A stretch of 61,404 nt of DNA, from assembly GCA_964603995.1 (NCBI GenBank), contig CAZRXH010000006.1, positions 1 to 61,404 on the forward strand. The letters run 5' to 3'. Below the pieces are notes generated by a model that was not told where the DNA came from, did no database searches, and saw only the letters and a program-made list of their open reading frames with translations. The translations under genes were made by a program, and so were the position numbers. This stretch comes from an uncultured Bacteroidota bacterium. GTDB taxonomy: Bacteria; Bacteroidota; Ignavibacteria; Kryptoniales; JAKASW01. Shown one piece after another: positions 17,530 to 53,965 of this stretch; position 1 is the first letter of the stretch; each line of letters begins with the position of its first letter.

Positions 17530-17710
17530 GGCAGTGGGCTATCTTGAATTGGAACATTAGCACACAGATGACGGAGAAAAAAACAAGAGATGATCACAGA
17601 TCAAATTATCATTCATGGCGCTGTCAGTGAGAATCTGTGTCCTATTTGCAGAAGGCATTCCTTCTGAACAGTGTGTTCTGTGTGCGATGATTTGAAAATA
17701 GCCCACTACC
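17530..17710. mobile_element. MITE-like element, copy B
   Basis: Terminal inverted repeats GGCAGTGGGCTATCTTGAA / TTGAAAATAGCCCACTACC (16/19 match); body collinear with copy A. Confidence 0.7.
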
Positions 17711-17762
17711 CGGAATTTGGTACTGGCTCGATTTCAATAAGATTGATCGGAGCATGAATCCG

Positions 17763-17875
17763 TTTCCCGCCACGAAGTGGCTCCTTTCGCGAAGCGATGC
17801 CTTCGGCACGGAGCAGATCTCGCAGATAAGCGCAGAATGGTGATCGGCGATCATCTGCGCAATCAGCGGGAGAAA
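17763..17875. repeat. REP-like palindrome (CGCAGAT repeats / ATCTGCG) interrupted by two nested 22-nt double mini-hairpins
   Basis: TTTCCCG[insert 17770-17813]CAGATCTCGCAGATAAGCGCAGA...ATCTGCGCAATCAGCGGGAGAAA. Confidence 0.7.
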
Positions 17876-17908
17876 CCAGATTGAGCCAATACCCGGAATT
17901 TCGGTTTT

Positions 17909-53531: not shown

Positions 53532-53603
<72 letters not shown>

Positions 53604-53608
53604 CGTAG

Positions 53609-53872
53609 ATGAATTTCTTTGTGTATGTTCTGAGGAGTCTGACAAAGGAAAGGTATTATGTCGGGCAGACTGATGATCTTTCGGACAGACTCAGGAGACA
53701 TAACGGAGGAAGAGTTAAATCGACAAAGGCTTACAGGCCATGGTCGATAGCGTACTTTGAGAAATATGAGACACGAGCGGAAGCTGTGAGGCGAGAACGA
53801 GAGTTGAAGAACCTCAAGGGGACCGCTAAGTTTCTGAAGCTGATAGGCGTAGTCCCGACCTTGTCGGGATAA
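53609..53872 (+). CDS. Stand-alone GIY-YIG endonuclease (87 aa)
   Basis: FVYVL, YYVGQT, RLRRHN, EA..RE..LK; starts 5 nt after the tRNA and its stop lies inside the pseudo-tRNA. Confidence 0.92.
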   Translation: MNFFVYVLRSLTKERYYVGQTDDLSDRLRRHNGGRVKSTKAYRPWSIAYFEKYETRAEAVRRERELKNLKGTAKFLKLIGVVPTLSG

Positions 53873-53965
53873 GGCATCCCGGCTCAATTGTATTGAGTCG
53901 GGACACTCGTAGGTTCTCGCAAAGCGATCCCTTCGGGAGAATCCTGCCGCCCCAGCGTAGATGAA
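53846..53965 (+). pseudogene. Degenerate tRNA-Gln copy invaded by palindromes
   Basis: Retains GGCGTAG, TAAGGCA, CACTCGTAGGTTC and 27 nt identical to 53587-53613, in tRNA order, separated by hairpins. Confidence 0.9.

Follow-up and report, generated by a model that had tools for sequence, protein, structure and literature searches.

Double mini-hairpin units of 21-22 nt as probable ultra-small, non-autonomous mobile elements in an Ignavibacteria genome

How does a piece of DNA of only 22 nt come to sit inside another piece of its own kind? The question is raised by positions 17770-17813 of the window, the 61,404-nt stretch of DNA analysed here, which is contig C6 of a 3.55-Mb, 227-contig genome assembly (G000; 51% G+C). 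At these positions, one 22-nt double mini-hairpin unit lies inside the second loop of another, with coordinates and letters exactly as the initial annotation of this DNA had claimed (Table 1). A unit of 21-22 bases that is copied into unrelated places would be among the smallest mobile DNA elements known. To our knowledge, mobile DNA so small has barely been documented; the only bacterial precedent that we know of is the small dispersed repeats (SDRs) of cyanobacteria. The data described below support the reading of these units as ultra-small mobile DNA, and the nest in the window probably belongs to a large family of such elements, all of them ultra-small and non-autonomous.

Table 1. Positions of the units, their host repeats, and the tRNA-linked cassette in the window.
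Feature	Position	Strand	Sequence or remark
Second MITE	17531-17709		contains the decayed fourth unit
Decayed fourth unit	17647-17668	.	TGCAGAAGGCATTCCTTCTGAA; both closing pairs mutated; within the second MITE
8-bp target duplication of the 175-nt MITE	17711-17718, 17894-17901		CGGAATTT
Host repeat, 175-nt MITE-like element	17719-17893	+	terminal inverted repeats GGTACTGGCTC / GAGCCAATACC
REP-like hairpin, core of the 175-nt MITE	17764-17769 + 17814-17838		pairs with 17853-17876
Outer unit, hairpin 1	17770-17780	.	CCACGAAGTGG
Outer unit, hairpin 2	17781-17786 + 17809-17813	.	CTCCTT + CGGAG; loop interrupted at TT^C by the inner unit
Inner 22-nt unit	17787-17808	.	TCGCGAAGCGATGCCTTCGGCA; GCGAAGC mini-hairpin core present
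Intact tRNA-Gln (UUG)	53532-53604	+	empty-site reference for the T-loop insertion
GIY-YIG ORF, 87 aa	53609-53872	+	PF01541, 62.3 bits; separates the tRNA from its 3' duplicate
Duplicate of the last 40 nt of tRNA-Gln plus flank	53904-53965	+	interrupted by the third unit; copy 1 at 53574-53613
Third unit	53917-53938	.	TCGCAAAGCGATCCCTTCGGGA; 35.4 bits (covariance model)

The inner unit was the top match of the whole genome to a covariance model built from 10 distinct units (37.2 bits, E 8e-6). Its host was cut at TT^C, one base earlier than the TTC^G of the nests found elsewhere. When both units were taken out, CCCG was followed by CAGATCTCG, CAGATAAGCG, and CAGA, an arm that pairs with 17853-17876. 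The proposal that such a regular REP-like arm had preceded the units was borne out: in the homologous MITEs of two other genomes (G017 and G001), which are free of units, CCCG runs straight into the 9-mer repeats, and the outer unit is therefore an insertion at CCCG^CAGAT. The same outer unit was present without interruption in contig C14 and in stem-covarying forms in C71 and C4, at the identical CCCG^CAGAT point of three diverged hairpins. Copies of the host MITE carried 0, 1, or 2 units; within G000, both units were present in the window, C102, C25, C52, and C169, only the outer unit in C11, and neither in C2. The nested form was intact in 5 places of this genome, and further copies were altered or interrupted. 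DNA folding of 17763-17875 (113 nt) recovered the nested drawing on both strands (z -2.8 and -3.5). For a bare unit, nearest-neighbour folding gave only -5.1 kcal/mol (z -1.2), a value in which the model may miss the stability measured for the GAA loop.

The surroundings of the nest are themselves layered. Two unlike MITEs adjoin between a mutL-like gene and aspS, the 175-nt MITE having been inserted beside the target duplication of its neighbour; the neighbour is orthologous in the corresponding spacer of the closest relative (L001), from which the 175-nt MITE is missing as a whole. The decayed fourth unit, which lies in the neighbour, corresponds to a 22-column gap in the orthologous MITE of L001, and intact versions of it were found in other MITE copies, at C56 and C82. 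At least three copies of the 175-nt MITE harbour, in the TTCG loop of the inner unit (the point corresponding to 17805-17806 of the window), an IS-like element whose terminal inverted repeats are imperfect, so that the unit is itself the target of a larger element. The junctions of this IS-like element coincide with contig ends of G000 (left, C45, C144, and C149; right, C66 and C178), with CG alone common to both, and its ORF begins a few bases inside the left end. The MITE copy of C74 looks like a deletion footprint, and the copy of C166 has lost the loop. The interior of the element was absent from the G000 assembly, and a 32-base exact pattern was unmatched in metagenome contigs. In a diverged REP-like hairpin (C71:14450-14660), double hairpins occupy mirror positions in the two arms, one following CCCG and the second, with the loops AAA and CTA, preceding CGGG.

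Units conform to the pattern T-NN-C-GAA-G-NN-A followed by T-NN-C-TTC-G-NN-A, that is, to two 11-nt modules; they measure 21-22 nt, and 27-nt relatives are rare. Because the GAA module precedes the TTC module, either strand folds as a 5' GAA mini-hairpin plus a 3' TTC hairpin. The two hairpins of a unit are usually not inverted copies of each other. Stems are taken from a small vocabulary (TCCC, TGCC, TCAC, TCGC, CTCC, CCAC, and a few others) in many pairings, with loops, closing pairs, and terminal T/A kept, and in an alignment of 10 units C4, A6, A7, and G8 were invariant. The earlier description of the units as structure-defined thus fits the two middle stem pairs, which vary freely, but not the loops, the closing C-G pair, and (mostly) the terminal T/A, which are conserved in sequence.

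When adjacent pairs of perfect hairpins with 4-bp stems and 3-nt loops were counted in G000, 94 were found; the loops were GAA or AAA followed by TTC or TTT in 12 of them, and the reverse or same-loop order did not occur (0). The initial annotation had suggested that its unit be counted genome-wide against simulated sequence, and this comparison came out in its favour: a loop-only pattern had 48 matches in G000, in 12 of which all 6 free base pairs were formed, whereas 10 third-order Markov genomes, with 21-41 loop matches each, yielded 0 fully paired doubles. Lone C-GAA-G hairpins were only mildly enriched (286 versus ~211 expected), and both these and lone C-TTC-G hairpins were near expectation from 5-mer counts. 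What is special is the adjacent GAA plus TTC pair, not the single hairpins. A covariation count (98.8% paired, with double changes at 6 of 8 pairs) is circular because its 10 units were chosen for being paired, and it was not relied on; the unbiased evidence is the Markov-genome comparison together with the loop-order count.

The three covarying units originally claimed are real, but they are far from the whole, the family having many more members. With both strands counted, the covariance model gave 27 matches in G000, equivalent to 16 places at E<=0.01, and among the 25 other genomes of the genus 21 had matches, with counts from 0 to 54 per genome; the genomes without any unit were G009, G041, G004, and G007. 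Of 150 other genomes sampled across the phylum, 27 also had matches (24 of 88 genera, with the genus of G000 itself counted), mainly in the same class and in a single additional family, f29 (9/22). In one genome, G099, every one of the 150 candidates scored was a match, so that 150 is a lower bound. All of these counts take in both strands, and none can exceed the number of candidates scored. Of the 37 distinct instances in G099, 23 were a single 22-mer, often lying in repeat families whose flanks are shared. The 22-mer TCCCGAAGGGATGCCTTCGGCA recurred within the genus, and loci of two other families of the phylum had it as well. Copy number thus ranged from 0 to >100 among related genomes; because many copies were inherited within larger repeats, independent insertions are far fewer than copies.

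Comparison of filled and empty sites was informative in protein-coding genes. A 21-nt version of the unit was present as four identical copies and one variant at five sites, the 150-nt flanks of which were without similarity to one another. At three of the five, it lies in frame in a long ORF, encoding an AcrB-family protein (C119), a GH115 glycosidase, or a MutS-domain-V protein; the other two sites are in C27 and C34. When the GH115 gene was aligned with its relatives, 11 of 11 segments from 9 relatives were short of exactly 7 codons, and at the DNA level AACCG/21 nt/CTGG in G000 stood against AACCG/NTGG in the relatives, a clean 21-nt gap without duplication. The 21 nt were likewise absent from 3 of 3 homologues of the MutS-domain gene. 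A neighbouring 27-nt relative, made of one GAA module plus a 16-nt hairpin (G000:C58:3551-3577; L125), was also in frame in this MutS-domain gene, being common to one G005 homologue and absent in two others. For the AcrB-family gene of C119, the best relatives were <=27% identical, and there was no close orthologue. Only 21- or 27-nt versions were seen in genes, with the reading frame kept, and the peptides differed according to reading frame (PNGSLR in GH115, ERIPSG in the MutS-domain gene). In another genome, G018 (L095:1501-1522 and L087:295-316), an IS3-type element has a 22-nt unit between its orfA and orfB. Since 22 nt is one base more than a multiple of three, the unit places the integrase frame in phase with orfA, and a fused transposase would skip the usual -1 frameshift; the IS3-type copy with the unit is repeated within the G018 genome.

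Comparisons of the same kind were provided by tRNA genes. The third unit of the window is an exact 22-nt insert at GGTTC^GAATCC in a duplicated T-loop, with the intact tRNA-Gln as its empty-site reference. The corresponding point, GTTC^GAAT, was filled in spare tRNA 3' ends of four lineages (the window, G015, G011, and G017), next to intact functional tRNAs, and two tandem arrays showed filled and empty T-loop repeats side by side. Since the functional tRNAs represent the ancestral state of the T-loop, the change runs toward insertion. The arrays, in G017 (L156:1227-1640) and G011 (L166:1100-1690), are built of 96-nt and 128-nt repeats of tRNA 3' ends behind real tRNA genes, and contain empty, filled, and doubly filled T-loops in neighbouring repeats. 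No target duplication was present at any clean filled/empty pair, and nesting at TTC^G was found independently in three other places (G024, G017, and C68). Empty-site alleles, named by the initial annotation as a test of mobility, were thus recovered in relatives and paralogues (GH115, MutS-domain gene, T-loops, and MITEs), and its further propositions of compensatory stem changes, insertion without duplication, and nesting in the unit's own TTC loop are supported as well. No insertion was caught in progress: the third unit was present in the filled form only, in contigs of 3 runs from one study, a result that says nothing on mobility because contigs are blind to rare empty alleles. Seventeen other sequencing runs listed contained only a small share (0.09-0.10) of the sequence words. 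An Rfam scan of the window gave two tRNAs and nothing else; the units are therefore covered by no known RNA family.

Junctions were then considered as a set. With each junction read toward the unit from both of its sides, TTN^ was found at 37 of 82 half-junctions (~5 expected), as TTC in 17, TTG in 10, and TTT in 10, compared with expectations of 2.0, 1.4, and 1.4, respectively. At 15 of 70 sites, the flanks paired over >=5 bp within 4 nt of the junction, versus 2.6% of random positions. Insertions favour TTN^ (most often TTC^G) and hairpin tips, as a tendency rather than a law; the GH115 site is neither TTN nor a hairpin. Targets comprised spare tRNA T-loops, the TTC loop of other units, MITE centres, and protein-coding genes, and it is because the TTC loop of a unit is a target that nesting arises. 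Whatever the flanks, the units end at the hairpin feet (T...A), including at sites free of TTN/NAA (GH115, C119, and C27).

Four family searches yielded no mobilising gene. The initial annotation had put forward the GIY-YIG gene of the window as the mobiliser of an ultra-small non-autonomous unit; the mobile unit was upheld, and the mobiliser was not. It is very improbable that this nuclease or its paralogues move the units by cutting TTC^GA in T-loop DNA. Small GIY-YIG ORFs behind tRNA genes constitute mini-cassettes closed by a duplicated tRNA 3' end, such as those at 53574-53965 of the window, in C70 and C17 of G000, in L151 (G015), and at G016:C8:597112-598548; sometimes they form tandem arrays at 309-nt spacing. 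In the cassette at G000:C70:399-500, the TTC^GA point of the duplicated T-loop is likewise occupied, here by an insert of 59 nt with two hairpins, the first of them a covarying variant of one found ~100 nt upstream. The nuclease is suggested by the cassettes of the window, C70, and G015, where units or other hairpin inserts break the duplicated T-loop, and by the presence of GIY-YIG genes in 5 of 5 unit-rich genomes outside the genus. However, every one of the 26 genomes of the genus had PF01541 genes (4-15 per genome), the four unit-free ones among them, and across these 26 genomes the GIY-YIG count did not correlate with unit copy number (Spearman 0.18, p 0.37). Because 12 of 14 control genomes matched as well, GIY-YIG genes do not discriminate, their family being much wider than the units. 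Moreover, the duplicate of the C17 cassette is empty, and the T-loop arrays of G011 and G017 had no GIY-YIG match on their contigs among the matches listed. A simpler explanation of the local association is that GIY-YIG cassettes make spare tRNA 3' ends, the T-loops of which are tolerated targets. Co-occurrence with Y1/TnpA-REP genes, also suggested earlier, amounted to a weak positive trend only. Within the genus, Y1_Tnp counts against unit counts gave rho 0.30 (p 0.14); in the phylum sample, Y1_Tnp was matched in 22 of 27 unit-positive versus 69 of 123 unit-negative genomes (p 0.017, kinship ignored), and it was unmatched in five unit-positive genomes. This is a loose association, and the Y1 genes of G000 (3 matches) had no unit modules in their flanks. 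A search for Y2_Tnp (IS91-type), prompted by GTTC/CTTG-like borders that recall IS91 targets, gave 0 matches in 5 unit-rich genomes and also 0 in control genomes, so that it carries no weight either way.

If the units were not mobile at all, they would be built-in parts of larger repeats, differing by deletion and compensatory drift. Such an origin would suit the nest of the window, which travels with the 175-nt MITE in 5 intact nested copies, the single 22-mer that makes up 23 of 37 distinct instances in G099, often within shared flanks, and the shared CCCG^CAGAT point of the outer unit in the diverged C14, C71, and C4. It is nevertheless highly improbable, being already contradicted by the GH115 and T-loop comparisons: units are precisely in frame in two unique genes and missing in 9 and 3 homologues, five sites have unrelated flanks, functional tRNAs show the ancestral T-loop and hence that the change was insertion, and the homologous MITEs of G017 and G001 are unit-free. 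Only slightly less improbable is that the units are selected functional motifs (for priming or termination, or as stabilisers of RNA or of direct repeats) that spread as useful. Their loops and closing pairs are strongly conserved across families, some of them lie just upstream of ribosome-binding sites (G024 and C138), the G018 unit puts an IS3-type orfB in frame with orfA, and an excerpt of PMC13037366 has mini-hairpins mark phage priming sites. However, copy number varies from 0 to >100 among related genomes, 4 genomes of the genus are without units, and units occur in pseudo-tRNAs, in genes, and in each other, with no common position relative to genes. Function would, in addition, not explain insertion, and it can coexist with mobility.

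The main rival to an enzyme is a template-switch or repair route without a dedicated transposase, in which a nascent strand switches template to a distant unit through TTN/NAA microhomology at the borders of that unit, or nuclease-resistant double-hairpin oligonucleotides, remnants of DNA degradation, are captured at nicks in the loops of hairpins. An excess of TTN at the 5' borders, matched by its complement at the 3' borders, is what a 2-3 nt microhomology guiding the switch would give; units sit at hairpin tips, where replication stalls; the four family searches left no mobiliser; mini-hairpins resist nucleases (PMC13037366, in excerpt); and the 59-nt insert of C70, with a first hairpin that varies from one 100 nt upstream, looks like local templated copying. 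We consider this route unlikely, given that the ends are the same whatever the flanks, including at sites without TTN/NAA, that an exact 22-mer in loci of several families points to recognition by a conserved protein, and that the strict GAA-then-TTC order (12 to 0) is not predicted by it. Taken together, the fixed ends, the absence of duplication, the hairpin-tip targets, and the recurrence of one 22-mer in several families favour an enzyme acting on single-stranded DNA. In such a mechanism, units would insert on single-stranded or extruded DNA, and an enzyme encoded by the host or by a transposon would act in trans, recognising the two loops and the closing pairs. The absence of duplication is more in keeping with a single-strand (HUH-type) or site-specific mechanism than with a DDE transposase. 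After insertion, much of the copy number comes from hitch-hiking on the larger repeats that the units entered. We tentatively propose an undescribed transposition system in which a conserved enzyme may recognise a 22-nt DNA solely by its GAA mini-hairpin and the TTC hairpin that follows, and may place copies at TTC^G in the loops of single-stranded hairpins, including T-loops.

By description, the closest known kind of element is the small dispersed repeats of Nostocaceae. These repeats, SDR1-8, were reportedly described by Elhai et al. in 2008 as dispersed and 21-27 nt long; they are said to be inserted into other repeats and conserved sequences, to be nested, to share a fold through compensatory changes, and to have no known mobiliser. 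The units described here resemble them in dispersal, nesting, size class (21-22 nt here, one of 27 nt, within 21-27 nt), a fold with compensatory changes, and the lack of an identified mobiliser. They differ in phylum, in consisting of two 4-bp triloop hairpins with GAA and TTC loops, and in the T-loop targeting and in-frame 21-nt gene insertions shown here. The AspRS loci closest to that of the window belong to Bacteroidetes/Ignavibacteriae MAGs, not Nostocaceae. Double-hairpin elements and GC clusters of fungal mitochondrial DNA are likewise very short inserts, two-hairpin or GC-rich and palindromic, that appear mobile and have no known enzyme; they differ in residing in organelle genomes, in being longer and more variable, and in having other sequences. 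SDRs are mentioned in excerpts of two citing papers (PMC3116915 and PMC5861425), and the excerpt of the latter places none outside Nostocaceae.

Other known systems share single traits with the units. Rickettsia palindromic elements (RPEs), according to an excerpt of PMC10969869, are palindromic selfish DNA found in frame within unrelated genes, to which they add a peptide. In-frame insertion was also found here in the GH115 and MutS-domain genes and in the AcrB-family gene of C119; however, RPEs are ~150 bp long with a conserved peptide, whereas the units add 7 or 9 codons in varied frames and are mostly non-coding. REP/REPIN elements are short hairpin repeats mobilised by RAYT tyrosine transposases (excerpts of PMC3116915 and PMC3733652); for REPs, too, movement as single-stranded DNA with no duplication of the target has been proposed, and they are targets of insertion sequences. 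They are defined in the excerpt of PMC3733652 by a GTAG or CGTC tag at one hairpin end, which was not found in the 10 units aligned, and they have a single longer hairpin, and unit modules do not accompany the Y1/RAYT-like genes of G000. In the GAA module, GCGAAGC is present either as such or as the tolerated CC...GG variant, and the GAA triloop and C-G closing pair are those of a DNA mini-hairpin that is exceptionally stable and nuclease-resistant according to an excerpt of PMC13037366; that mini-hairpin is a physico-chemical motif known from phage origins and promoters rather than an element dispersed through genomes. The units are not themselves MITEs, given the absence of duplication at clean pairs and a length of 21-22 nt versus ~50-500 bp. 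Palindrome-associated elements derived from IS200/IS605 insert without duplication, 3' of a fixed tetra- or pentanucleotide; for the units there was no duplication, and TTN^ at the half-junctions was accompanied by no fixed word. In the literature covered, with most subscription journals outside it, no description of a like element in the phylum was met. Three further candidates were rejected: an RNA tetraloop reading (UUCG/GNRA), because the registers do not fit; a sequencing adapter or assembly artefact, because units recur in independent assemblies; and P-nucleotide-type footprints, because the inserts are unrelated to the flanks.

As a second, unrelated family with clean empty sites, these units would make the minimum needs of a mobile element testable, the assets being a simple fold, a sharp target (TTC^G), and copy-number contrasts from 0 to >100 among relatives. 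For genome biology, the units break the direct repeats at tRNA-linked cassettes, attract an insertion sequence, and in one relative fuse IS3-type frames; they also fragment assemblies and can mislead tRNA and gene callers. For protein evolution, they insert 7- or 9-codon segments into enzymes and transporters. If the transposition system that we tentatively propose is real, no self-defined mobile DNA in bacteria would be smaller than these units, which would be at work throughout an entire class of the FCB group and would supply proteins with 7-residue insertions.
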